Positions 2,875 to 51,722 of a stretch of DNA of 64,000 bases are shown here, one piece after another. The notes below the pieces were generated by a model. The model saw only the letters and a program-made list of their open reading frames with translations. It was not told the origin of the DNA and ran no database searches. The stretch is from Cyanidioschyzon merolae. Its lineage: Eukaryota. Each line of letters begins with the position of its first letter. Position 1 is the first letter of the stretch. The translations under genes were made by a program, and so were the position numbers. The stretch is taken from the NCBI GenBank assembly GCA_000091205.1, contig AP006489.2. One strand, 5' to 3'.

Positions 2875-5286
2875 ATGAAGGAAGCCTCTCGTTCTAGAGG
2901 GTGCCAGGTGCGGCTTCGAATAGCGTCGCACCTGACATGCACCCGGGTGTACCCCGAGCTTCAGTGGGTACAGCCGCATGTGCTTTTCTCCGGTCGTCAG
3001 GCAGTTTCCCGCAAAGCCAAGGTAGTCAACATTGCGAAGGCGTGGTCGCGAGCCCCCCACAGAATATATGCTGCCTGCCGTCGGAGAAGCGTTGCCAATC
3101 TAGTCTACTGCTGCGCCACCAAGGGACACCAAGAGCACTCCGAAGCACCACCGAGCGATGACGCTTTGAGGGAATATGAAGCGGTGACCAGCACGCCGGA
3201 ACACGACACCAACGATGCCGTCCGCCGGGAGCTGGCGGAAAATCGTTTCAAAGCTGTTCGTGAACGCGTTGCTACGTTAGAGCAGAAACTACAGCACGGC
3301 GAGGCCATTCGCCGCGTTTTGCTAGCAGAGCAGCTGCTGAAAGCGCTACGAAATCCGGAACTCTACGCAAAACTAGAAGCGGTGGGCCGCAGGCATGCCG
3401 CTGAACAGGAAACGCCTTCCAGTGCCAGCTCGGATTCCAAAGCAACCGCTTCTGCAGCTATGAGCTCCGCTGTTGCTGGGGCAGCTGCTACGGAGCTTGA
3501 GCAACCAACAGATGTCGATGCTGGGCGCACTCCTTCTGTCGCAGCCTCTGACGAGAGGATCATGGCACTTGCCCGGATCATTCAGCAAACACAGGGCCTT
3601 CTCGAAGCACTGAGCCAGTGGAAACACTTGCCAGATAGCGTTTTGGCGAAGGCGAAGGAGTTTCGCAAAGAGCTCGGACAAGTTCTCCTTGAGACTGACC
3701 TTGAAACGGTACTAACCACGGGAGGTTCCGTTTCGAGTGCTGGCACCCCAAGCTCTGAAACCAGTTCTCCTGCCGCGAGAGATTTCTTCAACCGCGCAGT
3801 ACGGGCGCTGCGAGGGCGCTCGAGCGGCAAGCCGGCCGTTACAGACGAAGAGCTGGAGAGTATCCTCTCGGCCGCTGCACAAATGCGACGGACAAGTGCG
3901 CTCAAGGCAGAGATGGATCGCATCGTCACTGCCGAAGCCGCAGCTGCGATGGTGGAGGCCCAACGAGCTCGCGACGAAAAGAGCGCTAAGAACACGGGCG
4001 CAACGTACACTCAAGCTTCAGCCCGTCATGCGCAGCATCTCCTAGAGCGCTGTCGTTTGAAGGGACACGAGCTCAGGAGCTGGCTGAAGCATTTTGTTTC
4101 CGACACCTGGCAACGTCTGAATGGTGTCCCGAGCCCGTCACAGGGTTCCAGTGAAATGAGCGAGACTGCGATTGCACCAGCCCCTGTCATGCCGTTCCGC
4201 CAACGCCAAGCGCTGATCTTTAAGCACACTCTGGAAGATCTGAAACCTCTCGAACGAAAACTGCAGGAATTGAGCAAAGAACGCGAAATGCGTCTGCGAC
4301 GCGAGGGCCCTCTCGGCAAGCTGATCCATATTCGCGACCTGCGCGCACTAGACGACCAAGTGAACGCACTTCGTCGACAAATCAGCGTCCGAGTTCTCGA
4401 GAGCGAGATGGAACGCATTTATCTCTATCTCGATGCAGAGCTCGACGCCTCGACTTTGTTTTTCTCGCGGCCTATCAACGACGAACAGGAGGAGATGCTG
4501 CTCATCGCCGAATACGGGTTGCTGGCTCGGCGTCTAGCGGAAATCCAAGTCCTCGTGGATGTCGGTGAGGCGGTGCTCATCGAAGACGACGAGCTTGCCG
4601 ATCTGGCCTCTGACATCCAGTTTCTCAAGTCTCGCCTGGGCATCGGAGAAGACGATGCGTACATGAACCTGGGCTCTGTGGTACTCGATTGGTCGCGAAT
4701 TCGTCAGTATCTGGCGGAGATGTCCCAAAAAGCCAAGGAGGGTGGAGAATTCTACTGGCGAGGCGTTCGCCTTCTCGGAGGTGACATCATGTACAGCCTT
4801 CGACTGATTCAACGAGCAGCCGCAGGTTACACGTTAACACCGCGCGAAGTCCGCACCATTAGGCGAACAGGTCGCGATATCTTGACACTGGTCCCGTTTG
4901 GCATTTTATTGGCACTGCCGCTGACTCCCGTCGGCCATGTCATGGTGTTCTCGTTCATTCAGCGATATTTCCCGAGTTTCTTCCCGAGCACGTTCACGGA
5001 TAAGCGCCAGGAGCTCATGAGACGTTACGAAAGCCTCATGCAGCAAATTTCGAGCCTCGAAAAAGACTCTGCAACCGAGGAGGCTGAGAAAGTCTCGCTA
5101 TTGGCTCGCGCTGCGCCCGAGGAGACACACCTCGCCAGTGACGATGATGATAACGACATCGACGCCGGCACCAGTTACGTCGACAACGAAATCGACATCG
5201 ACAAGCGCAGTAGCGCGTTGGGAAACAGCGCTGGCGAACGTTTGGCAAGTCGCCGCTCGCGAGGCGTCGAGTTTCCGCGCAAGTGA
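2875..5286 (+). CDS. LETM1-domain protein (mitochondrial inner-membrane LETM1/Mdm38-like)
   Basis: 803-aa ORF. The segment FYWRGVRLLGGDIMYSLRLIQRAAAGYTLTPREVRTIRRTGRDILTLVPFGILLALPLTPVGHVMVFSFIQRYFPSFFPSTF matches the conserved LETM1 ribosome-binding/TM region (KxYWxGxKLL...LVPF...P.MLPSTF). An acidic/coiled-coil C-terminus follows. The true start Met may lie downstream of 2875. Confidence 0.55.
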   Translation: MKEASRSRGCQVRLRIASHLTCTRVYPELQWVQPHVLFSGRQAVSRKAKVVNIAKAWSRAPHRIYAACRRRSVANLVYCCATKGHQEHSEAPPSDDALREYEAVTSTPEHDTNDAVRRELAENRFKAVRERVATLEQKLQHGEAIRRVLLAEQLLKALRNPELYAKLEAVGRRHAAEQETPSSASSDSKATASAAMSSAVAGAAATELEQPTDVDAGRTPSVAASDERIMALARIIQQTQGLLEALSQWKHLPDSVLAKAKEFRKELGQVLLETDLETVLTTGGSVSSAGTPSSETSSPAARDFFNRAVRALRGRSSGKPAVTDEELESILSAAAQMRRTSALKAEMDRIVTAEAAAAMVEAQRARDEKSAKNTGATYTQASARHAQHLLERCRLKGHELRSWLKHFVSDTWQRLNGVPSPSQGSSEMSETAIAPAPVMPFRQRQALIFKHTLEDLKPLERKLQELSKEREMRLRREGPLGKLIHIRDLRALDDQVNALRRQISVRVLESEMERIYLYLDAELDASTLFFSRPINDEQEEMLLIAEYGLLARRLAEIQVLVDVGEAVLIEDDELADLASDIQFLKSRLGIGEDDAYMNLGSVVLDWSRIRQYLAEMSQKAKEGGEFYWRGVRLLGGDIMYSLRLIQRAAAGYTLTPREVRTIRRTGRDILTLVPFGILLALPLTPVGHVMVFSFIQRYFPSFFPSTFTDKRQELMRRYESLMQQISSLEKDSATEEAEKVSLLARAAPEETHLASDDDDNDIDAGTSYVDNEIDIDKRSSALGNSAGERLASRRSRGVEFPRK

Positions 5287-6372
5287 CGCAGCGTGCATGC
5301 GAAGACGCGCTCCCGTTGAGGCTTCCCTTTAGCAGAGGCGCGCTACAATGCTCTTTCGCTGTCGTTCCAAGGCGGTTGCCGCCGTCCAGCACTCCAGTTT
5401 GCAACCAGTCTCCGCTTTCGCTGATTCGACGATCGACGAGCCGTCGAGGAGCAAACCACGTGCATAGCCGTTCTGCGGCCTGGTCCAGCGTGACGCATCA
5501 TTCGAGAACACCGGTGATGATAATGGTGATATTCGTCGTCATTAGCGCACCGTAGGTCCGCAGCACCACCAAAGTGATACCCAGGGGTTTACCGCTCTCA
5601 ATGTTGTGCGTCGTTGTCGCGCGGCGGTACCTGCTGCTGCTGCTGCTGTTGCTGGTAACCGAGCGGTGGCGACGTGCTGACGGTATGTGTGCTGCGGTCG
5701 AGAATGCATGTGTGTGTTTGTGTCTGCACGCGTGGCTTCACACCAGGTGTGCTTCAGGAGACTCGAACCGTAACGCGTCGTGCAGCGCTGCGGACGGCAT
5801 CACTTGGGAATGAGCTGCTTGCGAAATGCATCCAACCTGGCAGCGCTGTAGTTGCCTCAGTGACTACCGGCTCTACGGACTCGGGGATGCAGAGGCAACG
5901 CAGGGGCAACTGCGGCTTGTGTGTGCCAAGGATGCATGTGCACTGTCGCTTGCGTTCGAAGCGTCAGTTCGCGTCTCGGCCATGTTCGAGAATGTTTTTG
6001 GTACAAGGACGGGGATCGTTGCCGATGATGATCATCGTCCGGCGTACGAATGCGTCCGCTGACCATGACCCCTTGACCGCGCATGCTGCACTGCGCATTC
6101 CAGGTGAACGTGCTGGAGGCAACGCAGAGAGGCTCGCGACCTGGGGACGGCACCGGAGCCTTGACGACTGGTTGATCCTGCGCTAGCAGCACGGAAGTGT
6201 GCACAGTGAGCGGTGCCAGTGCAGGCCGGCGCACGAGAAACAGCAGGACCTGGTGGCACAACTCGGTTCGAACTGCGCAGCGCTTGCTGCAGGAGCTTGT
6301 TCGGTATCGGAAAGCTGTGTTCGGCGATGCTGTTCACGGCCACACGGGTGGAGAACGGTCGGGGCTTTTGCC

Positions 6373-7727
6373 TTTGTCAAACTAAAATGCGTAACTGACC
6401 TGGTCGCTCTACTCATGTCTTGTGATTATGTTTCCGAACGTTTCATGGGTGTTTAGCCTCGGCATTCGATTTGCAGTCGCAAGGGATGCCGCTTTCATGC
6501 GTCGTTCTAGGATCCGCGGTCGTCGTTTCGGAGTGAGATTCTCGATGCTTTGCTGCTGGAATTCGGAACGATTCCAGAGTGAGGATGAGTCGCGAGGCAG
6601 TGGAACACGACTACGCAACACACGCGATACCATTGTGGTATTCGTATGTACCGGCAACCAGGCTACTCCTTTGCTTGTGTGCGTCGCATGCGCAGATCAC
6701 ACACAGGATTCATGTCTTCTATCGTTCTGTGTTCAGGCATTACGCGGACGAAGCAGTATGCGCTGTTGGATTGGCGAGCAAAAACACTCCATGTCGGGCG
6801 CTGAAACCTCGTTGACGAGTTCATGGCGAATGCTCACTGAACTTGTCCCGTCAACACATCGATCTCATTCGAAACACACACGTCCTACGCTCTGTGTATG
6901 GAGCCATCGACGACACAGCATTCGACAGCAGCATGACACCGGTCACGGGATATGCTCCCAGACGCTGTTGTCTCTTCCGTTTCGATCGAAAAAGGGTCCT
7001 GGAGTCGGAATGCTATGATCACAGCGATCGCTTTCTGCGGAGAATGCTTCGCGACTGAGAAAGAAGCGCGCGTTGCCGGATCGAAGGTTCTCGACTTGAT
7101 CTCGAGCCTCGGTTTCCCTCTCGGTACTTGTTTCATTTCAGAGAGCAACGCTCAGCACAAATCCGCTTGTAGAAAATCGAAAAACAAGCGTTCACGCGCC
7201 TAGAGAGCAGCGTACGAGGTCAAGGCATTGCCCCGAAGAAGCCAGCGGTATCAGGGAACTGCAGTGGGCACGTCAACTGAGGAGCGCATCGCGAGGAGCC
7301 TTCTGTACCCGTCAAGGGCATGGGCTGAGCGATACGGTGAGCGTTCACGCTCTGCAGAGTGGCGCTGCCACCAGGCGGAAATTTGCCGGAGACATGCATT
7401 CGAGTGCCTGACCAAAGTCAAGTGTCGCCGCTGCGAAGCGCGCACCGAGGCTGTTTCCGACAAGTACGAAACCGAGAAGCGAAGCGTGATTCGCGACTTG
7501 AGCCTGTGGACATCGTGCGTCGACACCAGCCGAAGCCCGTGATACCCGGACTTGGAAGCTGTTGTTGTTGTTGTTGTCGTCGTCGTCATGCAGTGACTAC
7601 TGAAAACAGAGCTGGCGAGACGAACACGATCCGCGTACGTAAACGCCGGAAATAAAAGAGGGAATATGCGGCAGTTGCAGACATAGCTTTCAACAACCGG
7701 TATTCATGAGAATGAAGAGAGACCCGA
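6373..7727 (+). mobile_element. Family-A IS607-like element, copy A1 (degenerate serine recombinase + truncated TnpB/Fanzor-like gene, non-coding 3' tail)
   Basis: About 99% identical to 23822..25170, with unrelated flanks. Frame of 6422..7018, nt ~6683-6748: VACADHTQDSCLLSFCVQALRG aligns to the resolvase N-terminus [22 protein letters not shown]. At ~6890: AIDDTAFDSS, in the position of the resolvase LDRLGR motif. In 7228..7542: CLTKVKCRRCEARTE...RDLSL, homologous to the A3 zinc-finger/RuvC-III segment. Many stop codons; no intact ORF. Confidence 0.6.
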
Positions 7728-7839
7728 CCCTTTTGCGAGTTCGCTCGATATACAGGACCTGTCCTATTTCTAGGCTGACACGGGTACGATGTAGCTCGAT
7801 CCTAGTCCTTGTGGTAAAGCAGAGCCGGCGTTACCGGTT

Positions 7840-9330
7840 TTAGTTTACATCAGTACAAGTCGCTTTGATTTCATTGGGCGGGGCCAGCGAAACGTATTGC
7901 AATCCGAAAACGCCCAGCAAATAACTCAGCACAGCAAACAGGAGCGCGATGGCTGCCAGATCTCCCAGGGAAGGTATACCGCCAAAGGCAGCTCGCCAGC
8001 CAAGCCCACCCCCGTCCTGCTGCTTGCGTCGATACAGTACATACAAACTAAGGATGATGAATAAGAGAACCGCAATCCGATTGGCATACTTCAGGCCCAG
8101 TGGCGGTCGATAGGCCGGTACTCGATAGACCGTCGCCATCGGACGATATATGAGTTCGTCTCGGATCCGCGCCGCCACGGTGAGAGCGTGCTCCACTGCA
8201 GCGACAGTCTCAGCATACGACGGATCACAGGGGTCTACGGAGCTCGCGATCGCCTCGCAGTACTCCGTGAAGATGGTCAGTACTGCGGGCATGTCGCGGG
8301 CGCGGAGCACGAGCTTCGCTGTTTGGCCGCGACGAAGCTTGACGCGTCGAACGAATACATCGGCGTTATTGTAGCAAAGCGCAAGCGTGGCTATCGCCAT
8401 GACTTGGGGAATCGCCACAAAATAAAATACAGATTCCGACCGCACCTGCGACATATACTGAAGACAATCGGGTACGTGCCGAAGCGCGTCGGTGACCATG
8501 GCGTTCAGGCACTCGACGGCGACACGGCGGTGTTCAGGTCGGGCTAGATCGGCGAGTTCCATGTCCTTGCCAAACCTACCCCATATCTCCTGAGGCCAAA
8601 ATGTGCGTCCATCACGTTGGTCTTCCAGATAGTCCCGGATAATATTGGTTTTCTGCAGGAAAAGACCCATAGAGTTCGCTAACGCATCAGCAAGCTTGCT
8701 CTCTACGAATACTTCCCGTGACTCGTACCCGGAAGCAGCGAACATGGCACTCAACCCAATACCCACCAAACCAGCAACGTAGTGGCAGTACAAGTCGTAG
8801 TCCGCAATGGTCGCACATGCCTTGTGATGAATGTGCTGAGCCATACCGTCACCCATACAACGGGTAATATCCGTTATGATCTCTCGATAAGCAGGTTTCA
8901 GCTCATGGAAACAACCAAGCACTCGGGGAAACTCTTCCAACAGCTTCCGCTCGTCCGCGCTGCCGATATCGTGCACAGCGTAGCTGTTGCCCTGCAGGTG
9001 CGTGTACAACTCTTGACACAGCCGCATCCGCAACGTTGCGTCAACGCTCGTGTCGTCCTCTATCGTGTCCAAGGCGCGTAGAATAAGGTAAAATATACAT
9101 ACCGGGTCGCGAAGTTCTGAATCCAGCTCCATGATCACCAGCGCGAACGAACGAGACACTCTCCGGAGGTACTCGTAACAGAAGCGCCAGTCGGCGATGC
9201 GCTCAGCATCGCCCACCCGCTGCCGTAAACCCTCTTCCTGTACGTTTACTGCCTTTCTACTCTTCTCACGATACTTGACTAACGCCCATAACTCATCAGG
9301 ATGGCATAAAACCGTGCGTAACGCGCCCAT
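7840..9330 (-). CDS. Squalene synthase (farnesyl-diphosphate farnesyltransferase)
   Basis: 496 aa. RVSRSFALVIMELDSELRDPVCIFYLILRALDTIEDD and MGLFLQKTNIIRDYLEDQRDGRTFWPQEIW are near-identical to conserved SQS motifs. C-terminal TM helix present. Confidence 0.85.
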   Translation of the reverse strand: MGALRTVLCHPDELWALVKYREKSRKAVNVQEEGLRQRVGDAERIADWRFCYEYLRRVSRSFALVIMELDSELRDPVCIFYLILRALDTIEDDTSVDATLRMRLCQELYTHLQGNSYAVHDIGSADERKLLEEFPRVLGCFHELKPAYREIITDITRCMGDGMAQHIHHKACATIADYDLYCHYVAGLVGIGLSAMFAASGYESREVFVESKLADALANSMGLFLQKTNIIRDYLEDQRDGRTFWPQEIWGRFGKDMELADLARPEHRRVAVECLNAMVTDALRHVPDCLQYMSQVRSESVFYFVAIPQVMAIATLALCYNNADVFVRRVKLRRGQTAKLVLRARDMPAVLTIFTEYCEAIASSVDPCDPSYAETVAAVEHALTVAARIRDELIYRPMATVYRVPAYRPPLGLKYANRIAVLLFIILSLYVLYRRKQQDGGGLGWRAAFGGIPSLGDLAAIALLFAVLSYLLGVFGLQYVSLAPPNEIKATCTDVN

Positions 9331-9619: not shown

Positions 9620-11050
9620 CGGATCGTAGCTGCATTGTATAGAGGCTATGCATTTCTATTCGTTACTGGACAGCGCAAAATGGACTGCATGAATGCCTCA
9701 GGTCAGTCATAGCACAGTGCGCAGATGGCTGAGGAACACTGAAAGACAGCAAGCGAGAACTGTATGCGCTCTGCGCCAAGAACTGGTATTGTGAAAGGCT
9801 CTAGTGGTCTATGGTAGAAAAACGAACTGTTGATTATCTTCCATGGAAGGCAAAATCGAAGATTGTAGTTACCACGGGCGTCTCTGCTTCTCAACAGCTC
9901 ATTCATTTGGTCCTGCAAGCACTGAGATACAGTTGCAGAAAAAGAGTACCGGTTGAAGCATGGTGGTTTTTCACGGAAATCGCACAGAGAGGCTTCCTGG
10001 AAATTGGGAATCTGTATGAAGCAGAGGAACGTCGGTTTGTTTTTCCAGTTAATGATACTGTGTTCGGATGAAACAGTCGTAGCGTCTATGCGTATTCGTG
10101 GAGCATGGATCCCGTCGTAGGTATGCACGATCGAACTCGAAGAGAACGGGGACATCATCATCGGTTCTAGGTGCAGTGGATTCATTTTTGGCGGCCTCAG
10201 CTTTGGCTCCTAGAGAAGGTTCGCGCATCAGCACAAACCACTTTGTCGAATTATCGAAGAATTTTGCCCTGACGTCTGAGAATGTCCCTCTGTTGCACAT
10301 CGTGCCACTTCACTCTTTCCCTTGCGTTTGGGCTTTTCCCGATTCTATCGGGGAGTAGAGCTGCTTTTCATTCCTTCATACTGAGCGTGATTGAATCCCG
10401 TTGAGGGAGTCGTTTCTATCGTGAATTGTGCGGATCGCTGCACTGGGTGGATCGCCGTAGCTCTGAACATGTGCTAACATACCGCGGCACGTTAGCTCTG
10501 TCTTCCACAAGTCCTTCTCGCTCTGGAAAAGTGCTCACCTATGGGCATGAATGAGTGCATTCATTTGAAGAAATAAATAATCTGAGGGATGCGCTGTAGA
10601 ATGCACTTCAGAAGATCGAGTTGGAGAGACGGCAGCGGAGCGCCTCGGCGCTAGAGGAGCACGGACAGCTGACAGACCACCGAATGGCACCGAGGGCAAG
10701 CGTTGGAGGACTCCTCGAAAATGCGGGTTTAACCAGCGGGAATCAACGCATGGAATGCGTGAACCGAGAGACTTCAACGCCGTGATCAATATCAGAAGAT
10801 ATGCGGTGCGGAGGATGAGACCCGAGGAGCCGCTGCAAACCAACTTTGGGGAGCAGCCTATGAAGCTCGAAGCGTACAAGGAGAAGCTGAAGCCGGTAGC
10901 ACACGGCCCGTCAACGAAAATGTCCGGAGGCTTCTACGGTTCTGTATCCGTGTACCCGGCATGGTCTTGCCACATGTATCGTTTCATTCAACATATTTGT
11001 ACACCTTAGAATAACATTGAACACATCGTGTGCGGACACCGGACTCGGCG
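9620..11050 (+). mobile_element. Family-B IS607-like element, copy B1 (serine-recombinase-like N-terminus + TnpB/Fanzor-like RuvC-III remnant)
   Basis: ORF 9811..10071 contains KIVVTTGVSASQQLIHLVLQALRYS, which aligns to resolvase [22 protein letters not shown] with the catalytic Ser retained. Later segments are ...VELLFIPSY (VdPaYTS-like) and RDFNAVINIRRYAV at 10767..10793 (TnpB RuvC-III DRDxNAAxNI). Homologous over its full length to 25415..26920 and, reverse-complemented, to 32600..33330. Confidence 0.5.
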
Positions 11051-23207: not shown

Positions 23208-23821
23208 TCAGGGGCGACTCGGAGTCAGCGCTCTATGATGGCGATGCTGGGCGTACGGACAAGAGTTCCTAAAATGATCCAGGAAAAGTCAGACTGGGAA
23301 CCAGCAGACCTCCAGAAAGAAAACTCTGGAACACCTTACGCTCTCTGCGGAAGCAAGTTCCTCGTTGAAAGGTTCTTGGGCTCAGCGAAGCGCCGCGGTG
23401 TATGCCTCGTGAGAGAACCTCTGCTCCCGTTGGCTCTAGACCAACTTTCGTTCCTCGATGTCTCCAGGAGTAGGGCTTCAAACGGAAGCGCCCTTGAGCT
23501 TCGACGAAGAGAACGTTTGCAGCCGTTTGCTCTGTACCGATCCTCGTGTCTCCTTGTCTTTAGAAAACGCTTCGCGGATCGGTTACCAACCTCTGTCGTG
23601 CAGAAAGCGCTGCGCAGGACTCGTCCCAAGCCGTCTTCGGAGCAGTTCAAGGATACTTGTTTCTGCAAGACCTTGAACGCCACAGTTTATCAACGATCGA
23701 TTCCTACCTCTCGTTTAAGGGTGAAAAGAAGCTCAGAAAACGCCCGGATATATCTGTGATAAACGTGTTTTCCGTAGGCGAGAAATCCGGAAGCGTCTTG
23801 TGCCGCGTTGTCCTATACCCG

Positions 23822-25170
23822 TGTCAAACTAAAATGCGTAACTGACCTGGTCGCTCTACTCATGTCTTGTGATTATGTTTCCGAACGTTTCATGGGTGTT
23901 TAGCCTCGGCATTCGATTTGCAGTCGCAAGGGATGCCGCTTTCATGCGTCGTTCTAGGATCCGCGGTCGTCGTTTCGGAGTGAGATTCTCGATGCTTTGC
24001 TGCTGGAATTCGGAACGATTCCAGAGTGAAGATGAGTCGCGAGGCAGTGGAACACGACTACGCAACACACGCGATACCATTGTGGTATTCGTATGTACCG
24101 GCAACCAGGCTACTCCTTTGCTTGTGTGCGTCGCATGCGCAGATCACACACAGGATTCATGTCTTCTATCGTTCTGTGTTCAGGCATTACGCGGACGAAG
24201 CAGTATGCGCTGTTGGATTGGCGAGCAAAAACACTCCATGTCGGGCGCTGAAACCTCGTTGACGAGTTCATGGCGAATGCTCACTGAACTTGTCCCGTCA
24301 ACACATCGATCTCATTCGAAACACACAAGTCCTACGCCCTGTGTATGGAGCCATCGACGACACAGCATTCGACAGCAGCATGACACCGGTCACGGGATAT
24401 GCTCCCAGACGCTGTTGTCTCTTCCGTTTCGATCGAAAAAGGGTCCTGGAGTCGGAATGCTATGATCACAGCGATCGCTTTCTGCGGAGAATGCTTCGCG
24501 ACTGAGAAAGAAGCGCGCGTTGCCGGATCGAAGGTTCTCGACTTGATCTCGAGCCTCGGTTTCCCTCTCGGTACTTGTTTCATCTCCGAGAGCAACGCTC
24601 AGCACAAAGCCGCTTGTAGAAAATCGAAAAACAAGCGTTCACGCGCCTAGAGAGCAGCGTACGAGGTCAAGGCATTGCCCCGAAGAAGCCAGCGGTATCA
24701 GGGAACTGCAGTGGGCACGTCAACTGAGGAGCGCATCGCGAGGAGCCTTCTGTACCCGTCAAGGGCATGGGCTGAGCGATACGGTGAGCGTTCACGCTCT
24801 GCAGAGTGGCGCTGCCACCAGGCGGAAATTTGCCGGAGACATGCATTCGAGTGCCTGACCAAAGTCAAGTGTCGCCGCTGCGAAGCGCGCACCGAGGCTG
24901 TTTCCGACAAGTACGAAACCGAAAAGCGAAGCGTGATTCGCGACTTGAGCCTGTGGACATCGTGCGTCGACACCAGCCGAAGCCCGTGATACCCGGACTT
25001 GGAAGCTGTTGTTGTTGTTGTCGTCGTCGTCATGCAGTGACTACTGGAAACAGAGCTGGCGAGACGAACACGATCCGCGTACGTAAACGCCGGAAATAAA
25101 AGAGGGAATATGCGGCAGTTGCAGACATAGCTTTCAACAACCGGTATTCATGAGAATGAAAAGAGACCCA
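23822..25170 (+). mobile_element. Family-A IS607-like element, copy A2
   Basis: About 99% identical to A1 (6373..7727) over about 1.35 kb. The same start (tgtcaaactaaaatgcgtaactgacc) and end (...ggtattcatgagaatgaa(a/g)agagaccc) with unrelated flanks. The ORF differences between copies are non-synonymous and random, so the element is non-coding. Confidence 0.6.
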
Positions 25171-25414
25171 AACTTTAGGCTGTACACCCGTGTTCGAGTA
25201 CCTGCTCCATGATATCACGAGATACGTGTATTCTCTACATCGAAGAAGGCACACAACGGTTTACGAGCCATGAAGCATGAAACGAGATCGTGCGTTCGGC
25301 GGAATCGTACATATTGCTTTAGTCTTTCAACGCAACGATATTGCATATCCGAATCATGTCATCGAATGCTTTTTCGCGGAGTATATCAAGAGATCGAAAT
25401 CACGATGCAATGCA

Positions 25415-26920
25415 CCATACAGATCGTAGACGAATTACCAATAAAACATATGCGTTACAGAACAGTGCAACGAGGACTGCATCCCTCCTTCTGTTCAGTT
25501 ATACCACAGGACGCAGATGAGAGAAGAACACAGAAAGAAACAAGTATATTTGCTCCGGCCCCAAAACTGGTATTCTTAACGTGTGCTTGCTGTAAATGGT
25601 AGAGAACAAGCAGTTGAGCACCTTTTACGGAAGGCAAAAGCAACGACACTAGCTACCACCGGCGCCTCTGTTTCTCTACAGCTTGTTCGTGTGGCACTGA
25701 AAACACTGGGATAGAGTCGCAGAAAAAGGGTGCTAGTTCATGAATGGCCATTTTCCATAGGAACCACGACTACAGCGTTCCTGGAACGTCGCAATTGGTA
25801 TTAGGGACCGAAAAGGCGACCTGTTTTCATCAGTAGATGACACTTGCTTCGGCCGAAACGGTCGCAGCGGCTATGGGTATTTGCGGAGCACGGAGCCCGT
25901 GGTATGTACAATCGAACTCCAAGAGGACTAAGACATCATTATCTGTTCGACCTGCATTGGATACATTTGGCGGCATCAGTTTCCCCCGTAGAGAAAGCTC
26001 ATACTACAGCACCAACCACTGTGTCGAATTATTGAAGACCTTTTCTCCTGAATGTCTCTTGACGCCCTTGTATTGAACGTTGCATTTCAACGTTCCGCTT
26101 GCGTTCGAGCTTTTGTCGATTCTATCTGGGTAGAGCTGCTTTTCGATCCTCCGTGCTTAGCGTGTTTCAACCCCATCGAACGAGTCTTTCGTATCCTGAT
26201 ACGTAATGATCGCTCCACTGGACGAAGCATCGAAGCTTTGAACACGCGGTGACATTCCGGGACACCTGTCGTCTTTCTTGTACAAGTGCTCCTCTCGCAG
26301 GGAACGCCCTCACATGAGGGCATGAACAAGTGCGTTCATTTTGAAGAAATAAAAAATCCAAGGGAAAGGTATCGAAATGGAACACGTGGATGCTGGATGC
26401 CCGACGTCGCCGGGTTCGGCGAAAAAAACGAAAAAAATCCTCTTCACGCCGACCAACGAGCGATAAAGCACAACTGACGAAGAATAAGGGCAAGAGGGCA
26501 GGTAAGCGAGCTCGGCTGGGCTTGCCCGATTTCAGGATGACGAGGCTGTGGTGCCCCTGAGGGCACGAGTTCCAGCAATCCTCGCATTGGTTCGTTCAAC
26601 CTCAGGCAATCACCGCGTAGACTTCGTGAGCCCGGACTTTAACGCTGTTCTTAATATCACAAGATGTACAGTGCTGAAGACGAGACTCGAGGAGCTGATG
26701 CGAGCCAGCTTGGTGTGGCAGCCTCGAATACTCGACGTATCCAAGAAGACCTGAAACCGATAGCAGGCGGCCGGTCGGAAAAAAAAGCCGGCAGGCATTT
26801 GGACGTCGCCATACGTTCGCCCTACATGTTCGTGAGCGTTTGTTCGTTTCCGAGACAATGCACTCCCAGTCTCAACACAAGTCGTGCGCTTGGAACAGGG
26901 TTTTTTTTCAAGTAGAGAAA
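25415..26920 (+). mobile_element. Family-B IS607-like element, copy B2
   Basis: DNA homologous to B1 along its length. KAKATTLATTGASVSLQLVRVALKTLG corresponds to the serine-recombinase motif. WVELLFDPPCLAC is a VdP..C..C zinc-finger-like segment. GNHRVDFVSPDFNAVLNITRC at 26632..26658 is RuvC-III-like. The 3' tail is homologous to the B1 and B3 tails. Confidence 0.5.
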
Positions 26921-30734: not shown

Positions 30735-31299
30735 GAGCTCCCGAAGTGCGCAGCGCTGTCGGTGCGACGAGCTTCACTGCACGTTCAAGGCAAAACGGTT
30801 GAACTGTGGCGCAACGCCCTACCGGTAGCGGTTTGAAACCGGGGCATCCAGGTGGCCCGATTTGGCTTGACCTTTTCTGTCAGGTTGATACAATGATTTA
30901 TCATAAATGTCAGGCTTTGTTTCAGCTGCGTTGCCTGACGGCTGAATTTGGGATGATTGCCACGACATGGCCGGTGCGCTGCTCAATGAGAGAGAACTCA
31001 TTCGCGACCAATGCGTTTCAAAGGCAGCGGCGCTAGCGCCTGTGGAAAACGCTACCCCCGAACGAGTCACGAGAGGGATCGACGGAGGCTCCGTATTATC
31101 CTGTGAGAATGCACTAAAGTCGGCGGAACGTAGCGGTGTCGAAAGAGGAAGGCTGGTGTTGGCCCTGGACAGCGGTACCAACTGCGCAGCTGAGAGACGA
31201 CGGCTGGAGTCGTCGATTTGGCAACGTAGGAGTAAACCTGCGCGCATGGTAGAATCAGCGACCAGAACCACGTCCAACTGAATGGGAACACTGAAGTCT

Positions 31300-32560
31300 T
31301 TGTTCTGTTTCTGCTTGTCGATTTTCCCGGTGTTTTTTGGTGTCGACCCTGCACTTTTGGAAGTGAAGCAAGAAAGGCACACAGCTTACCAGTTAGTTTA
31401 CGTTTCCCGGTTATGTTTTTGACGTGACTCGTTTCGCGCTTTGCCGCTGGAACTCGTGACATCCTGGAACAACGCTGCGCAAAACTACCAGAATCATCAT
31501 TCCATGCTCATGCACGAGCCTCCACGGTTCACCTTCGCTTTCCAAGTAGCATACGCAAATCACGCAGTGTTCAAGTATTTGATCTTTGTGTTTCACTGCA
31601 AATCGTGGGCGCTTCAATTCGTGTCGCTGGACTGAAGATGACCAGTACACGATATCGTTGATTGAAGACCTTTTCACATGCTCATGCCGAAAGTTCATTG
31701 AACTGTTCGAGTCGAACAATGAACTCTGCTCGAAAGACAAATCCCTCTCTATTTCCGGTCGTCGAAGGATCAGCATTCGACTGCAGCATGATACCGCTGA
31801 CGGGATATGATCCCAGAGGCGCCGGTCTCTTCCGTTCACAAACGGAACAGCGTCTTGGACTTAGGCTTTCGCGATGGCAACGATCGCTTCCAGTAGAGAC
31901 ATCGTCATCGCTTGCCACAGAGGGAGCGTAGGCGGATCGAGATTTCTCGACCCGTCCTCCAGCACAGGATTTTTTTCCGATACCCGTTTCATCATGGATA
32001 CCATCGCGTTTCACAAATCCTGTATTGACTAGCACGGCGGATGCCTGTACGTCCAGCTGGCAGCTGCGTATTCGCCGAGGAGATCACCTACGCGAAGCTC
32101 GTGTTTGTAGATTGCAGCGCTGGACGCGGAAACGGAGTGCATCGAGGAAAGGTATCTGTACTACGCCAGGTCATGCACCGAGCGATGAAGCACGCTTTTT
32201 CGCGCTACAGGTCTGCTCTCGAAGGAGGTGTTGTAGTGGACATACGGGAGCTCCTGATCACAGACAAGTGTCCCAGCTGCAAATGGCGTACCGAATCCGC
32301 ATGCAGAGAAGATCACCATCGCAAGCGAAGCGTAGGTCGTAACCGCAGCCTATGAGTGGAATGTCGTAGAGAACTTGCGGAAGCAGCGGACTCGGGACTT
32401 GAACGCCGCATTCAGTGTCGTTCGACTGCCGAAACCCGGCCTGACGAGAAACGCGAGACCGGCATATTGCAAGGCGCGAACAAGATAGAGGAGAAGGTAG
32501 CAGCGGTTTAGACAACCCGTAAAAGTTGGTATTCATCATGGTGAGAAGAGACCCAAACGT
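31300..32560 (+). mobile_element. Family-A IS607-like element, diverged copy A3 (best-preserved TnpB C-terminal motifs)
   Basis: DNA homologous to A1 throughout, about 75-80% identical. ORF 32041..32355 reads ITYAKLVFVDCSAGRGNGVHRGKVSVLRQVMHRAMKHAFSRYRSALEGGVVVDIRELLITDKCPSCKW. This corresponds to TnpB RuvC-II (ivfEdLnvkgM...WgeFrrqLeYKAew.Gk.vv.vDp.yTSQ.CS.CG). RDLNAAFSVV at 32393..32422 is RuvC-III RDxNAAxNI. The end motif ggtattcatcatggtgagaagagaccc is at ~32527. Confidence 0.6.
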
Positions 32561-32599
32561 TTGCGTGTACGCATGTGGTAGGTTTCCTGACCCGTTCTC

Positions 32600-33330
32600 A
32601 TCTGACATGGATGCAGAAGAACCGTGGCCTTCTCGCAGGTATGCGACAGCAACTGCGCGTGCTAGCGGTCCAGCTTACTTGTCCCGATCTCACACGAGAA
32701 ACAGTTGATCAACGGAAGGAAAATCTCTCGCGTCCGTACAAGGTAAATATATGCAACCACGCAGAGGACGCCTCCAAGCTTTTTTTTCTGAACTGGCCGA
32801 CCGCTATCGGTTTCAACTTATCCAGGCATCACTTTGAACCAGAGAGGTTGTCCCACGAAGTTTACTCGCCTCAGATCCTCGGGTCTCATCTTGAGCACTG
32901 CACATCGTCTGGTATTCATAGCAGCGTTAAAGTCTCGGTTCACGAACTCTATGCGGTGATCGCCTCTGGTTGAACTCACCAATGCGGGGATTGTTAGAAC
33001 TCGCGCCCTCTGTGCCACTAGAGTCTTCTGAGCGTCCCGTCGGGGAAACAGCTTGTCTCGTCTATCTCCCCTGTTCTTCTGCTTCTTCTTTTTCGTCACT
33101 TGCTCTGCTTCGCTCCATGGTCGGCAAGAAGAAGATTTTCGTCGAGTTTTTGTCGACCCTGGTAATGAAGGGCCCTCCAGGATTCCCTACTTCCATGTCC
33201 ATCCCTTTCCCTAGAGTTTTTTATGTTTGAACTTGAACGCATTCGATCCCGTCTATTATAAACCGCGAAAAAGCATTTGATGACACCCACCTTCACGTGG
33301 AACACAACTGAGGTAAAAGTCTGCATGCGT
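32600..33330 (-). mobile_element. Family-B element, truncated copy B3 (minus strand), abutting A3 tail-to-tail
   Basis: ORF 32818..33099(-) contains GDHRIEFVNRDFNAAMNTRRCAVLKMRPEDL (RuvC-III-like, 32911..32937). The 3' tail (32600-32820) reverse-complemented is homologous to the B1 and B2 tails (gaaaccgatagcggtcggcc...). The 5' part is lost to truncation before the Utp6-like gene. Confidence 0.45.
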
Positions 33331-36744: not shown

Positions 36745-37727
36745 TCGACTCCATACCAGCGCCGAAATCGCCGCCGCCGTCGTCGTTGCTGCAGCTGCCG
36801 CCTCCCATCGATTGATTTCTTTCTTTCATGGACAAAACTGGTACACTGGCCAGCGTTCTCTGATTGTACGCTTTGCTTTTTCATCGCACAGGGAAGCATC
36901 CGTCAAACCGCTTACGTCAGAGTTCCATGACCCATACTTCTTCTCGGATACACTGTTCATTTCATAGGTTCTATCGTGTGTCGAGAGCGTGCCCTGAGCG
37001 TCCGCGAGAGCGCCTATAGCGCCGATACGGATGCAGCAGGGGGCCCGAACGACTCTTCCATGTCACCGAGGGCGTCAGCTCGGGGTGTGTCTCAGTCGAC
37101 GCTTACATGAATCGCATGGCTCGTTACTGCATCGACAGCCGGTGTATGCCGGCATGCCGTCACTACACGACGCACTTGAGAAGCTCGCCATTCAGCACGG
37201 AACCTGGGTGGTGCGTGACCCTTTGGCAATCAATCAATCATCTGTCTGTGTATCTGTGTGTCTGTGTATCTGTTTGTCTGTGAGCGTACGTGCGTGTCGA
37301 ATCGGTCACCGCTTCGCAATGCCGGCTACCGCTCGACGCCGTCTTGTTCATTGCTGCGCCGATCGTTTAACATGCGTGCGCATCCAGTTGGACGAACTTT
37401 CCACCTTGAAGGTAGCCTGTGGGTTTTTTGGTCATCACCAAGCGTCGTGGGTCAAAAAGACGTCCGACAGGTACCAGGTTTGCGCTCTATGGGGGCGATC
37501 GCCCCGTGCAGCCCCGAATGAAAATCCAGCGCGATCGGCTCCTGGGCGCGGCGGCGCGGCGCGCAACGCTGCGCGATCGATCATTTTTGAATCCCGTGGC
37601 AGGTCCCGGAGTCCCGGATAGCGGTGTCTCCTCTACTGTTTGCTCAGCAGGGGCGTTCCTCGGGAACTCGCGTACAAACCAGTAGCGCTCGCTGAGCAGC
37701 AACTTTTGTGATTGTGCTGAATCACTA

Positions 37728-39717: not shown

Positions 39718-39750
<33 letters not shown>
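39717..39750. repeat. (CAG)n microsatellite
   Basis: gcagcagcagcagcagcagcagcagcagca in the spacer between the hypothetical gene and the proteasome gene. Confidence 0.8.
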
Positions 39751-40240
39751 CCGAAAGCCAGCGTTACGAGACAACAAAGAAGCAGGCCTCAGACCTCTTT
39801 CTCGCGCTGCAGCAATCTGCACCTCGAATCGACGCCCTGCAGCTGCGATGGCGTCAGCGACGCACGCACCGCATGGCGCGGCTGCCGTTCACATGCGCCT
39901 GCACGCGCGCCGCCGTACGCATCGCTGCGTGGCGTCGATCACGCACAGGCTACCCGCCGGTGTGACGGTTTGCTTCACGCATGACAACGCTATATATATC
40001 AATTTAGGCGAACTTGGATTGATATCTGCGACGGTGGCTTTACGGCAAGCGACGTTCCAAGCGCCGATACCGCTGCCTCGAATGGATAACTGGCATGATG
40101 GCCCGCGATCGATCGATGGATCGATCAATTGGCTCCGCCGTCCATCGAAAGCGTTGGTCTCCGGCTGGGCAGCGCGTTACGCTCGCCCTGGAGTTTCAAC
40201 CGAAGATTGAGGGTTCGAGTCCCTTCCGTCGCGTTGACTT

Positions 40241-44624: not shown

Positions 44625-44670
44625 GTGTCGCTGCTGCTGTTGCTGCTGCTGCTGTTGGTGCTGCTGCTAT
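44625..44670. repeat. (GCT)n microsatellite
   Basis: gctgctgctgttgctgctgctgctgttggtgctgctgct, flanking the 3' end of A4. Confidence 0.8.
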
Positions 44671-44749
44671 AGACGTGCAGTTCGACACCTGGTACACCAA
44701 CTCAGAAGACTTCGAAACGGGTCATTCAACGTCGGTGCACTCATATACG

Positions 44750-45990
44750 TTTGCACTAATGTCCTAGTGTCCACAAAAAGAGCATTTGCAGGCTTGTTCT
44801 TTGGCTGCTTTCTTTTTTCCCTCTAATAAATTCGACCTGACAAAGCACCCGTTCGTCGTGTAACTTCAGCCCCGTTCTTACCATTACATGGATGTTAATC
44901 GTAGCCTGCAAGTTCTGATTTTGCAGCTTCCTGCTGGTTACATGCATTTCGGGCACTGGTGGAAGTGGCGATCAACGATTCACTTGCCAGTTTCGTTCTC
45001 TTGATCCAGAGGCTGAGTACGGCATTCGCTGTGGTGACACGCGTATGTGATTAGGTATTCGCAAATGCCCGCCACGACGCCTCCTTCGAGCGCCGCCCTG
45101 TAGCACATGAATTCTTGCTGCCTGGTTCGGTACAAGAGCCCGACGAGTCCTGTGCACTCACCTGGATGCCGTCCTCTGGTTCCACGCGTGGAGCCGTGCC
45201 CCGCGATCAGGGGCATGTTCGGGGCGATCCCGTCAGCGAGGAATTTGTATGCTGCCTGTGCATATGCACGATGTACCATGCCACAGAGGATTGCGGAATA
45301 TGATGTTCTCCATGATGGAGCGCGTACTGGATGGCAACATTCAGGCTGGAGAACAAGTCGATAAATGTCGGTCCGTGGACGAAGCTCCTTCGTCCACAGT
45401 GATAGTGCATCTGCCATTGCAAGCTATCGTTGTGATGCCAGAGACCCGAGTCCGACATCCCTTTCCGCGCAAACTTAACAGACGGGAGCGCGCCTCGGAC
45501 CACATCCTGTGAAAGCATATCATGTCGCAGTCGAATCTGGTATCGTCGGTAGCCACATGAAAGAGGAGATTTTCCTCGGGAACGGAACCAATTATTTGCT
45601 TTGACAATGTCTTCGAAATTGCTGCATGATCTTGTGTACGAGTCGCCAGAACACGATGTCCAGCAACGTGCGTCGTCAATCCAGGGACGCGAACACCAGT
45701 GCCTACAAGCTGTGTTAAGTCGAAAAGCCGAATCCCCGAAGCATACCTCATTTGGGCATGCTGGACGCGGGGTACGGAGAATCATGGATGCCTGTACGAT
45801 TAAAAAACTGAATCATGATATCGAATATGTGATGCAATCCTGTTTTTCACGGATATCGCGAATCAACTTGATGTATTGACTTTACGAACGCCCGCTGCGA
45901 AGAATGCAACAGACCAATTCGATAAGTCGACCACGCATCCTAGAATAACGTTTGGATCCGCAAGCCCTTTTCGTCGCATAGCATCAATGC
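44750..45990 (-). mobile_element. Family-A IS607-like element, diverged copy A4 (minus strand)
   Basis: ORF 45341..45751(-) has VATDDTRFDCDMI (equivalent to A1 AIDDTAFDSSMT). ORF 44980..45417(-) has FMCYRAALEGGVVAGICEYLITYACHHSEC (equivalent to A3 YRSALEGGVVVDIRELLITDKCPSC). Downstream are FHQCPKC (second CxxC) and LQATINIHVMVRTGL at ~44867..44908 (RuvC-III NAAxNI...GL). The 3' tail is homologous to the A1 tail. Confidence 0.55.
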
Positions 45991-46564
45991 AATGCCGTCC
46001 ATCTCAGACAAAAGTTTAGAGAAAGCTCGATGACAGGAACGTTACAAGCATCTCAGTGTTCCATGGGAGTCTGACAACCGCAGAGAGCGCTTCAATGAAT
46101 GGAGGCGATCGACGCTGACATGCGAATGCCGCCCGCAATCAAGCTATCAGCGACTTGTTTTCCGCAACCGCGTCCACAAGCCACAAGTTCGGGATCTCTG
46201 CCTCTCTGAAAAATACCAGTTCAGTTGATCTATGCATGTTGTGAGGTATCGAACCTGAAAACGCTTGCCACACGCGAAGAAACACACTGCAACACACTCC
46301 TTCGGGATGCTTCGGGTATTGAGCGGCGCGCCGGGATCGTTACGGCGCCAGCGCGGCGTCTTGTTCGACACGCCTCACAGCGTCTGAACGTTGTAACTTT
46401 TCGTGTCTTTTGACGAGGTCTGTGGGACTTTTGTGGGCTGCAGAACTCGGAGTGGTTTCTTCCGGGTGCCCTGAGGTCGACCGCAAGGTGTCTTTTTTCA
46501 GGACGACGGGACTCGAGCGCAGTCGTTGCTTCGGTTTTTTTTGTGGTGCACAGCAGCTGCTCGC

Positions 46565-46835
46565 TGTGAAGCTGCACCTCTGCTGCCGGTTACGATTCTC
46601 GTTAGTCGAAGCCTTGACTTGAGAGACGAAGAGCTTTCATTGTCTAAGGCTGCCGACAAGTTGATTTTAAGGCTACCAACATAGCTAACGTTCGCTGTAG
46701 AGACGAACCTGTGTTGCCGGTTGCGATTCTCGCTTGTCGAAGCGTCGACTCAAGGGAGAACCCTCACTATCCAAAGCTACCGACAGCTTTCATTGTCTAA
46801 GGCTCCCGTGTCAACGTTCGCTTTAGAGCTGCATC
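46565..46835. repeat. About 128-bp tandem repeat (about 2.1 units) directly upstream of the HRD1 start codon
   Basis: Units tg(c/t)tgccggtt(a/g)cgattctcg(t/c)t(a/t)gtcgaagc...ctttcattgtctaaggct...cgttcgct(g/t)tagag. These begin at ~46575 and ~46704, with a partial third unit at ~46829. Confidence 0.7.
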
Positions 46836-49499: not shown

Positions 49500-50800
49500 C
49501 CAGACGCTCATGCAACCAAGTCAGAGGATGATGAGACCGGTCTACCAGCTCCGACTTGCATACTAAAGTGCAGGTCTGCTTCTTATGTCATCAGTACCGT
49601 CCATTGGGGGCTATTTTTGTCGAACGCTCCATTTTTCGCCGCTCGTGCATCCGGTTCTTGAGGAGCCGGTCGCTGACGTCGCTCCAGCTCCGGTGTCAGC
49701 TGTCGAAAGCTGATCATCGGAGCGTCGAGGTCACGATTCTGTTGCGTTCGACTGTTGTCAAGGTGCTCTATGCACGGATGGTGTCTGCGATTCACGAGCA
49801 CTCTGGTATGCACCCTCGATACCCGCTCCGCGGCTGCTATGCTTGGCTATGGCCAAGTCCTTCCATATGTCCACCATATCCGCTGGTCAGAGCGTCAGTC
49901 TGAGCTGAACGAACGCTTGCTTTTTCGCCCAGCATATATCCCTGAGGATTACAGAGAGAGCATGCATCACTCGATGCGCTTCTCTGTCAACGCACCCGGT
50001 GCCGTGCTCCGGGATCGCGGGCTTCTTCTGCGGACATCTCCTCGGCGAGGACATTGTCTTATGCACGCGCAAGCGCATGCTGTTCCATTCGATAGAGGAT
50101 ATGTGGAATCCGACGTCGTCCATGACGATACATGTACCGAGAGGAAAATCCAGGCTGGAGGCCAAACCCGTGAATTTGTATCCGTCTCCTGCTTTATACC
50201 TGGGAATCGATGTCGCACGCTCCACTAGCAGCGATCGCTGGAATGAAAAAAAAGCACGGCTCCAGGGCGCTCTTCACCGGAAATAGAAGAGAAGGAAGTC
50301 ACAGGAAGCGTATCCCCTGAACGGCATCACATGGCTGTCGAATGCAGTTTCGTCGGTAGATAGAAACACGGGAGGATTTGTCTTTCGAACGGAATCGATT
50401 ATCTGACGTTACACGATCAGTGAATTTTCCGGATGATCTTGTGATCAAGTCGTCAAGTGACCATGTGCAGTTTTTGTTCCTCGAAAATCGAGCAGCACAA
50501 GTCGCTGATCCCACGCGCTCCCCTGAAGCAGAAGAATCGACGAATAGAAAAATACCTGATTAGAGTATGGCATACGTAAGGAAAGCAGAAGCGTGGAGAC
50601 ACTTACCTCCTTGTCGAATCGTTATATGCCGGTTACATTTAGGAACTCTTGTTCGATAGCTTTGTGAATCATTCTGATTCCAGCGACGTAATGAATTCCA
50701 ACGAAAAGGCATCGAAAGAGCCATTTTGAAAATACGACCGAGCATCCTAAAATAACGTATGAAGCCGTACGCCCCGATTGCTCCACTTGGACCATGGATG
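49500..50800 (-). mobile_element. Family-A IS607-like element, diverged copy A5 (minus strand, internal deletion)
   Basis: The + strand 50400-50800 is homologous to 45600-45990, the 5' part of A4. ORF 49887..50225(-) has CIVMDDVGFHISS (equivalent to AIDDTAFDSS). ORF 49583..49813(-) has LVNRRHHPCIEHLDNSRTQQNRDLDAPMISF. This is homologous at DNA level to the A3 LITDKCPSCKW...RDLNAAFSVV, with RuvC-III-like at ~49706..49738. Confidence 0.45.
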
Positions 50801-51722
50801 CTATGCATCTGACACTAGTTCCAGAAACAAGTCACAAGGTAGGAATAAAACACCCAGGTCAGTGTCCCATGGTTATCAAACACGGCTGTCGCTTGACCTC
50901 CTAGCGCTGAGCAGCGCAACCACACGACAAGGCCCCCAGACGTGTATCGCTAGACCGCTTTGAAGGCTACTGGTCTGTCTCCGCGGCATTCGAGCCCAGC
51001 CCTGCATACACGCCTGTGGCGCTCTCGCGGGCTAGGGTCTCAGGTCAATACCGAGCGGTATGCGTAGGAGCAATATCACGAACGATGCCCGGAACGCTAC
51101 ACTAGCAACGCCCTCTGAGATCCAGGGAAACTTGGTTTTTTTTCGAGTCCAAGACGTAGCATCTGTCACTGATGGATCTCCTGTTGCTCTGTGCGGTAAA
51201 ACCTGGTGCGCTGTTGTGTCTGCCGTTTACGTAGGCATCTCTTCGTGATTAGGGAGTAGGAATGCTACGCAGAAAGCACCTTCCTGAAGCATGGCGTTCG
51301 CTGCACGACGAGTTTCTGAAGCGAAGCTACCGGCGCATAGGCGTACCAGGTATGCACCAAAAGACTCCAAAAACGCTCCATTAATTCTAGATTTTCTTCA
51401 TCAAACGCTCATTCTGGGTTAGAGATCGTCTCTAGATCCGTGTCGACGGACACGGAACACTGCTGCAGACCCGCGTGTTCTTTCCGCAACACCTGTTGAC
51501 GTGCTGGAAGGCCTCGCTGAGGCTGCGTAACTGGCGACACGCGTCGCCGCTTGAACAGCGTTCCTAGCAGTAAGCTCGTTTCCAATTGATCGGTTTCATG
51601 GAACTGCAATTCAGACCGAGTACCGTTGCCTAAAACGAGCACTCGTTTACCTGGCTCCGCCCTATGGATGTCTTTTCGTGAAAACGCGCGTCCACAAGCG
51701 CCCACTGCCTTGTTCGCGCGCT

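Follow-up and report, generated by a model that had tools for sequence, protein, structure and literature searches.

Fanzor1 proteins carried by Mariner-type DNA transposons are already known (PMC3627910, PMC10530073). In PUl-1 of Pythium (Globisporangium) ultimum, a DDE_3 transposase gene on the 5′ side is followed on the same strand by a Fanzor1 gene on the 3′ side, and the unit is bounded by 24-bp terminal inverted repeats (TIRs); the element is 3620 bp long and intact, occurs in 8 copies, and is flanked by clear TA duplications (PMC3627910). SPu-1 of Spizellomyces punctatus, also of the Tc1/mariner type, has 33-bp TIRs, is flanked by TA, and needs a trans-acting transposase (Additional file 1, PMC3627910). 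The IS607-type Fanzor2 elements (ISvMimi_1, ACa-1, and CRv-1), like bacterial IS607, combine a transposase gene with a TnpB-family gene behind it, but their transposases are serine recombinases, and no TIRs or target-site duplications are listed for them (PMC3627910). For the red alga Cyanidioschyzon merolae, Bao and Jurka reported a single Fanzor family, CMe-1; the known Fanzor1 family CMe-1A, which lacks TIRs and encodes a Fanzor1 of 734 amino acids, is present in about 150 copies and has a consensus of 3169 bp (PMC3627910). Transposons have been put at 0.7% of the genome, its "eight class II elements" being akin to bacterial transposases (PMC1955436), and miniature inverted-repeat transposable elements are described as absent (PMC3964958). 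Here, we describe a further repeat family, referred to as family A, from a 64,000-nucleotide stretch of C. merolae DNA (contig AP006489.2, assembly GCA_000091205.1; the whole stretch is called the window here), with the focus on copy A3 at 31265–32613 on the plus strand. In our view family A very probably consists of dead, internally deleted, nonautonomous DNA transposons of the Tc1/mariner/IS630 (DDE_3) type in the nuclear genome of this alga, although the original prediction, made from the letters of the window, had read them as degenerate IS607-like elements with a serine-recombinase TnpA, a TnpB/Fanzor2 remnant, and a noncoding right end.

The five window segments assigned to the family are homologous and collinear over essentially their full length (pairwise nhmmer E values of 1e-55 to 1e-86), and nhmmer found no sixth copy in the window, which bears out the proposed family of exactly five. 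Their proposed locations hold as well, while their sizes had been put slightly too low: nhmmer envelopes against a profile of 18 copies (see below) place A1 at 6369–7786 (+), A2 at 23816–25228 (+), A3 at the position given above, A4 at 44695–46082 (−), and A5 at 49513–50888 (−), with an element length of 1.35 to 1.42 kb. A blastn self-comparison reveals only the identity between A1 and A2 plus short patches of 70 to 80% identity that join the other copies, and the pairwise identity among window copies, A1/A2 excepted, is 52 to 57%. The view that the segments are transposable-element copies riddled with frameshifts and stop codons is supported, individual copies having stops in every frame. A Pfam search of the frames of A3 and A4 gave no match, and single copies score −1 to 2.4 bits against Fanzor1 C-terminal and Mariner-transposase profiles, compared with a dinucleotide-shuffle 95th percentile of 2.8. 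The protein motifs in single copies are indistinguishable from chance, though mostly in the right columns, and significance is reached only in the consensus.

For that consensus, extra copies were taken from Cyanidioschyzon-like metagenome contigs, which were fetched around CMe-1 homologues and scanned with a family-A DNA profile; family A occurs on them at about 1 copy per 15 kb. The 9-copy consensus peptide, run against the metagenome collection, added 33 loci. After removal of near-identical loci, 13 further independent copies brought the total to 18 independent full-length copies, out of roughly two dozen distinct ones above the nhmmer threshold, all of them 1.35 to 1.42 kb long and 50 to 60% identical pairwise. 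The 18-copy majority consensus is 1380 bp long, and each copy is ∼70% identical to it. Domains were scored on the whole-frame translation of the DNA majority consensus, with no fitting to any protein; the Fanzor profiles were built from the six Fanzor1 and eight Fanzor2 C-termini in the supplement of Bao and Jurka and the Mariner profile from relatives of the Pythium PUl-1 transposase, all of which contain PF13358.

The protein signal rises as copies join the consensus. With 4, 9, and 18 copies, respectively, Pfam PF07282 (Cas12f1-like_TNB, formerly OrfB_Zn_ribbon) scores 19.1, 28.6, and 29.5 bits (E = 8.2e-7 in the last case; curated cut-off, 26.3), and the Fanzor1 C-terminal profile scores 30.5, 48.7, and 51.6 bits (shuffle maximum, 7.4). 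In a second frame, Pfam DDE_3 is unmatched with 4 copies, reaches 28.9 bits with 9, and stands at 38.1 bits with 18 (E = 1.7e-9; curated cut-off, 28.6), and the PUl-1-type Mariner transposase profile goes from 7.2 to 47.2 and 57.7 bits (shuffle maximum, 3.9). For the 4-copy consensus, built from the independent window copies, PF07282 was the single match among 24,736 Pfam families (E = 0.0015).

Reading inward, the transposase frame contains a helix-turn-helix (HTH) region, the first catalytic aspartate motif LFVAIDETAFD, and, 78 residues on, the second aspartate motif FIMDNIAFHKS, which is the usual DDE_3 layout. In the 18-copy consensus, the DDE_3 match spans profile positions 3 to 102 of 146, with Asp1 (AIDET) and Asp2 (IMDN) both present; because it ends at position 102, the part of the domain around the third catalytic residue has been lost. 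HTH_Tnp_Tc3_2 and HTH_33 match weakly (E of about 1e-3), and the PUl-1-type transposase profile aligns over positions 21 to 224 of 308, so that the consensus shows the DDE_3-type transposase with N-terminal HTH that characterizes Tc1/mariner/IS630 elements. The PUl-1 transposase itself gave no significant tblastn match to the 4-copy consensus; more copies and a profile were needed for the signal. One copy (L050:3305-3964) carries ∼450 additional bp between the two DDE aspartate motifs, resembling no other sequence compared.

This DDE_3 remnant, above the curated cut-off and with its 57.7 bits against Mariner-type transposases, is the upstream gene remnant for which a serine recombinase had been proposed. 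The peptide put forward as the recombinase active site does not lie in the supported frame, and the consensus does not preserve it. Three consensus builds and copies A3 and A4, searched in all frames with E limits of 10 or 1, gave zero matches to Resolvase; the reconstructed consensus matches TnpB/Fanzor profiles and no serine-recombinase profile. The segment (A/V)(I/M)DD(T/V)xF, taken to stand in the position of the resolvase LDRLGR motif, turned out to be the first catalytic-aspartate motif, AIDETAF, of the DDE_3 transposase.

The termini point the same way. The consensus has TIRs of 26 bp with 24 of 26 positions matching (left, CACCCGTGTCAGATTAAAATGGAACA; right, as reverse complement, CACCCATGTCAGAATAAAATGGAACA), as in Tc1/mariner/IS630 elements and contrary to the lack of TIRs in IS607 elements, and together with the DDE_3 remnant they contradict an IS607 architecture. 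Immediately outside the left TIR, TA is found in 6 to 7 of the 18 copies and is the commonest dinucleotide there; on the right, the first base beyond the TIR is preferentially T and the second preferentially A. Among the window copies, a clean TA is seen at A4 alone and on its right side only, the ∼30% per-site decay precluding proof. These tendencies suggest that family A duplicated a TA target site.

The Fanzor frame starts within a few dozen bases of the DDE_3 match (...LAEGIAQKKPVIVGYGTGRGNGGGHRGEPSVPVKGMYRAMKQAFTRHRAALGGGGVVDIWEHLTTVKCHRCEGRTEAVYKEDENGKRSVDRNFRLCMKCVDNSRKQRNRDLNAAINILRLL... in the 18-copy consensus), and its tail reads VIVGYGTG...VVDIWEHLTTVKCHRCEG...RLCMKCVDNSRKQRNRDLNAAINILRLL. 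The C-terminal core motif of TnpB and Fanzor proteins, [TS][TS]-x-x-C4-x(5,50)-RD (Bao and Jurka 2013, PMC3627910), is fitted by TTVKCHRC...CMKC-x9-NRD, in the consensus only. Fanzors in general have a rearranged RuvC site in which a glycine or proline replaces the RuvC-II glutamate and an alternative glutamate lies ∼45 amino acids downstream (Jiang et al. 2023, PMC10530073), and the consensus reproduces it, with a GYG motif and then an (R/W)E glutamate 45 amino acids downstream. The RuvC-I aspartate, expected 125 to 275 amino acids upstream of the zinc finger, is not there: the Fanzor-like frame begins only ∼15 to 30 amino acids ahead of the RuvC-II-equivalent GYG, and the sequence upstream of it is the transposase remnant. 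With RuvC-I and everything N-terminal to it absent, the RuvC D-E-D triad is incomplete, and family A carries a nuclease-gene fragment, not a nuclease gene. The claim of an already truncated, nonautonomous TnpB/Fanzor progenitor is thereby upheld, with the C-terminal ∼175 amino acids alone matching PF07282 and the Fanzor1 profile at the values given above. Likewise, the proposed RuvC-II-to-zinc-finger and RDxNAAxNI blocks correspond to Fanzor C-terminal columns of the consensus, even though the single-copy motifs from which they were read are at chance level. The tRNA and Rfam scans (gathering thresholds) of the window gave zero matches; as regards a guide RNA (omega or fRNA) at the 3′ end, covariation cannot show in copies that decayed after insertion.

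The type of Fanzor was assigned by profile comparison. The 9-copy peptide scores 52.5 bits against the Fanzor1 profile over the whole length, GYG region included, versus 13.4 bits against the Fanzor2 profile for the zinc finger and RuvC-III only; with the 18-copy consensus, the values are 51.6 versus 8.5 bits, and the Fanzor2 profile reaches 9.2 bits at most against whole-frame consensuses. The best pairwise matches of the 9-copy peptide are Chlamydomonas CRe (41.6 bits), Pythium PUl-1 (40.8 bits), and Phaeocystis virus PGv-1 (39.7 bits), of which PUl-1 and PGv-1 Fanzors are Mariner-borne Fanzor1 proteins. As judged from sequence, and in company with a Mariner-type transposase remnant, the family-A nuclease tail is Fanzor1-like and not Fanzor2-like as originally assigned. 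Since CMe-1 reaches only 30.4 bits against the same peptide, family A appears to be a second, separate Fanzor1 lineage in C. merolae. Some features do recall the Fanzor2 elements, which have the zinc finger/RuvC-III core in common with family A: EYLTT-x-x-C resembles NEYLTTKTC of ISvMimi_1, and there is a weak local Fanzor2-profile match of 8.5 to 13 bits at the zinc finger and RuvC-III. Against this, the Fanzor1 profile is better by about 40 bits and also spans the RuvC-II GYG region, whereas the eight Fanzor2 sequences of the Bao and Jurka supplement lack a YG motif there.

The founder of family A would have been an element of about 1380 bp with ∼26-bp TIRs (CACCCRTGTCAGAWTAAAATGGAACA) at both ends, probably flanked by TA, and would have arisen by internal deletion from a PUl-1-like two-gene element encoding a Mariner-type transposase and then a Fanzor1 RNA-guided RuvC nuclease. 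The deletion would have cost the transposase its C-terminal third, in which the third catalytic residue lay, and Fanzor1 its N-terminal three quarters, RuvC-I among them. Left over are roughly 270 amino acids of transposase N terminus (HTH, Asp1, and Asp2) and 175 amino acids of Fanzor1 C terminus, with a RuvC-II-like GYG, the alternative glutamate, a CxxC...CxxC zinc finger, and the RuvC-III motif NRDLNAAINI. As neither fragment could be active, mobilization in trans would be required, in which the transposase of a full-length partner binds the TIRs for cut-and-paste transposition. One ancient burst would then have been followed by neutral decay and, later, by homogenization of A1 and A2 through gene conversion.

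This account is in keeping with the likeness to PUl-1, which is TIR-bounded in the same way, has the same gene order on one strand, and provides the transposase-family profile (57.7 bits) and a Fanzor C terminus (40.8 bits) that match family A. The TIRs of PUl-1 are, however, of unrelated sequence, and family A is short (1380 bp), high-copy, about 30% decayed, resident in a red alga, and devoid of the transposase C terminus and of about three quarters of Fanzor1. SPu-1, which presumably is the carrier of the SpuFz1 protein, is a parallel for transposition in trans within the Tc1/mariner type; it has a complete Fanzor1 and no transposase remnant, in contrast to the dead C-terminal Fanzor fragment and the transposase fragment of family A.

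Several points weigh against the account. No full-length, autonomous relative and no intact DDE open reading frame (ORF) was found in the 527 kb examined, every near-complete match in the search for a longer autonomous copy being 1.35 to 1.42 kb long, apart from the copy on L050 with its ∼450 additional bp. The two-gene progenitor is deduced solely from the junction common to the copies, the TA target-site duplication is a statistical tendency only, and the argument as a whole depends on the consensus, no single copy being significant alone. The 18-copy consensus itself retains stops, and a frameshift separates its first HTH region from all that follows, meaning either that the founder was already a pseudogene or that the alignment is imperfect. 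The extra copies come from metagenome contigs and are assigned to Cyanidioschyzon by gene content and CMe-1 homologues. Finally, the 4-copy consensus protein had zero relatives in a collection of 5.8 billion proteins, and phmmer likewise found none among PDB sequences for the Fanzor tail of the 9-copy consensus.

Some of these points would also fit a chimera, in which an unrelated transposase element and a Fanzor element were fused before the burst by nested insertion or recombination and a single Mariner-plus-Fanzor1 parent never existed. The junction common to 18 of 18 copies proves its preamplification age and not its origin, Fanzor elements are often chimeric according to Bao and Jurka (PMC3627910), and the intact parent did not turn up in the 527 kb. 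Yet both halves find their best or near-best match in one element type (57.7 bits for the transposase profile of the PUl-1 type, and 40.8 and 39.7 bits for the Fanzors of PUl-1 and PGv-1), their order and orientation, with transposase 5′ and Fanzor 3′ on one strand, are those of PUl-1, and a single TIR pair encloses the whole unit. We therefore consider such a fusion unlikely.

Regarding the age of the family, the star-like tree, the ∼70% identity to the consensus, and the pairwise identities of 50 to 60% suggest a single old burst. The divergence between copies lacks three-base (codon) periodicity, so the copies did not diverge as coding lineages, and it is uniform along the element, with no conserved block beyond slightly better-kept stretches. 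In two comparisons of closely related strains, family-A copies showed 13.5 and 15.7 differences per kb, versus 2 to 20 in other intergenic DNA and 0.7 to 6 in genes. Family-A copies now evolve as other intergenic DNA does, neutrally decayed and dead. Few copies are truncated, and the full length of 1.35 to 1.42 kb has been kept despite ∼30% substitution from the consensus. Old transposon relics do not usually survive in this way, and the pattern suggests that large deletions are very rare in this compact genome or that nested insertions are few. On contigs L036 (45–4531) and L037, 4.5 kb of sequence holds three or four fragments of family A, oriented both ways, perhaps as nested or clustered insertions. 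The density in the sampled DNA is ∼1 copy per 13 to 30 kb, and this biased sample would, by rough extrapolation, correspond to several hundred to about 1000 copies, or ∼5 to 9% of the genome.

Few free-living eukaryotes have genomes as compact as this one, and the retention of full length raises the idea that the host keeps the 1.4-kb units for their length or position, as intergenic spacers, promoters, terminators, or transcript-end modules. It is in line with this that 18 of the roughly two dozen copies are full length after about 30% substitution in such a genome and that copies sit directly at gene ends, A1 ending 54 bp beyond the stop codon of squalene synthase. But the strain divergence of the copies equals or exceeds that of neighboring intergenic DNA and is far above that of genes, the uniform divergence between copies leaves no block that would stand out as conserved, and both orientations relative to adjacent genes occur, all of which makes co-option very improbable. 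The reading as IS607-like elements, which is right about the order of a transposase remnant, a TnpB-like remnant, and a short noncoding end, is scarcely credible in the face of a DDE_3 remnant, 26-bp TIRs, and a Fanzor1-type tail.

Copies A1 and A2 stand apart from the low identity among the others. Positions 6375–7725 (+) of A1 and 23822–25169 of A2 are 99.1% identical over 1351 nucleotides; the identity starts at the left end and stops ∼60 bp short of the right ends, past which the right ends and flanks are as divergent as those of any old pair, and the right TIR has decayed separately in each copy. The pattern is best explained by ectopic gene conversion, the two old insertions being 17.4 kb apart. 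Recent transposition as the source of the identity was rejected because the tract ends inside the element and the right TIRs and flanks differ. A related strain contig (L001), 99% identical to the window, already has the converted A1. Such conversion between dispersed repeats would have taken place in a genome usually considered repeat-poor. A (GTT/GTC)n triplet run at ∼7540–7580 in A1 and at the matching site in A2 is expanded relative to all other copies, and its length differs by a 6-nucleotide indel between the window and L001.

Copy A3, at 1056 bits against the 18-copy profile, is decayed yet complete from TIR to TIR. In per-copy end alignments, its left TIR at 31265–31290 (+) reads GAACCACGTCCAACTGAATGGGAACA, where the consensus has CACCCGTGTCAGATTAAAATGGAACA, and its right TIR at 32588–32613 (+) reads TGACCCGTTCTCATCTGACATGGATG. 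By tblastn of the stitched consensus, the DDE_3 remnant at the first catalytic aspartate lies at 31734–31928 (+), with VVEGSAFD in place of AIDETAFD, and is followed one frame off by the remnant at the second, FIMDTIAFHKS, at 31919–32029 (+). What is left of Fanzor1 between the RuvC-II region and the zinc finger, both included, occupies 32071–32364 (+) and reads AKLVFVDCSAG...VVVDIRELLITDKCPSCKW..., with a stop codon that destroys the second CxxC pair; the RuvC-III remnant comes next in a different frame at 32366–32467 (+) (RTRDLNAAFSVVRL; consensus, NRDLNAAINILRLL). A4, the most decayed copy, retains ICEYLITYACHHSEC...HFHQCPKC and NLQATINI, and A5 retains STDETAFD, CIVMDDVGFHIS, and NRDLDAPMISF.

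CMe-1A was considered as the identity of family A and rejected, as blastn, tblastn, and nhmmer with CMe-1A match other pieces only: the published consensus matches the window at 10589–10945 (+), 26328–26808 (+), 32745–33324 (−), and 36831–37102 (+), the segments first grouped as family B. One of them is a 3′ piece and one a piece of the 5′ TE-N2_CMe-like region; those at 26328–26808 (+) and 32745–33324 (−) are internally deleted copies in which nucleotides ∼790 to 1070 are joined to ∼2825 to 3100. The two families inhabit the same genome as old, multicopy, Fanzor1-bearing repeats, and CMe-1A fragments adjoin three of the window copies of family A, but they have no DNA similarity, and their protein similarity, at 30 bits, is confined to the RuvC/zinc-finger core. 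CMe-1A is without TIRs or transposase and has some copies with an intact Fanzor1, whereas family A has TIRs and a DDE remnant and is wholly dead. From C. merolae, a repeat of 3.2 kb has been reported that occurs in 253 copies and weakly resembles the protein WSV486 of white spot syndrome virus (WSSV) (Nozaki et al. 2007, PMC1955436), and from the matching descriptions we infer that it is CMe-1A.

In one of the CMe-1A fragments, an ORF at 32818–33099 (−) still reads ...EFVNRDFNAAMNTRRCAVL..., a clean RuvC-III motif. A repeat of ∼930 bp (9657–10589 and 25449–26365; 70% identical) lies directly upstream of two CMe-1A 3′ fragments; it had no match to family A, to the consensus of CMe-1A, or to the protein profile of CMe-1 and may be the body of a composite nonautonomous relative of CMe-1A. 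On a Cyanidioschyzon-like contig, a reverse-transcriptase (RVT_1) ORF adjoins a CMe-1 copy (L010:814-2710) and is presumably one of the reported non-LTR (lacking long terminal repeats) retrotransposons of C. merolae.

The window ORFs are eukaryotic nuclear-type genes, encoding an RNA polymerase largest subunit, SMC, synoviolin, Utp6, mitochondrial EF-G, and squalene synthase, and two window proteins are identical to BAM79676.1 and BAM79691.1 of C. merolae 10D. The squalene synthase gene occupies 7840–9330 on the minus strand, with its stop codon nearest the right end of A1. The abutment of family-A copies on gene ends is direct, in either orientation. The synoviolin-like gene has, just on its upstream side, a weak tandem duplication (46561–46702 and 46692–46828) with units of ∼140 bp that are 70% identical, and a 37-nucleotide inverted match (89% identical) lies on both sides of the SMC gene region (39718–39754 and 44628–44664).

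Family A is a real but ordinary relic and opens no new mechanism, and it may already be deposited in Repbase or Dfam. Its corrected classification makes the second Fanzor-bearing family of C. merolae a Tc1/mariner-borne Fanzor1 relic rather than an IS607/Fanzor2 element, by which the Rhodophyta join the hosts of Mariner-plus-Fanzor1 elements. The family should be of use to those who annotate repeats in Cyanidiales genomes, and it directs attention to a possible intact Fanzor1 partner in a thermoacidophile. For C. merolae, the finding suggests that the intergenic DNA contains a substantial, very old, and so far unrecognized layer of transposons.

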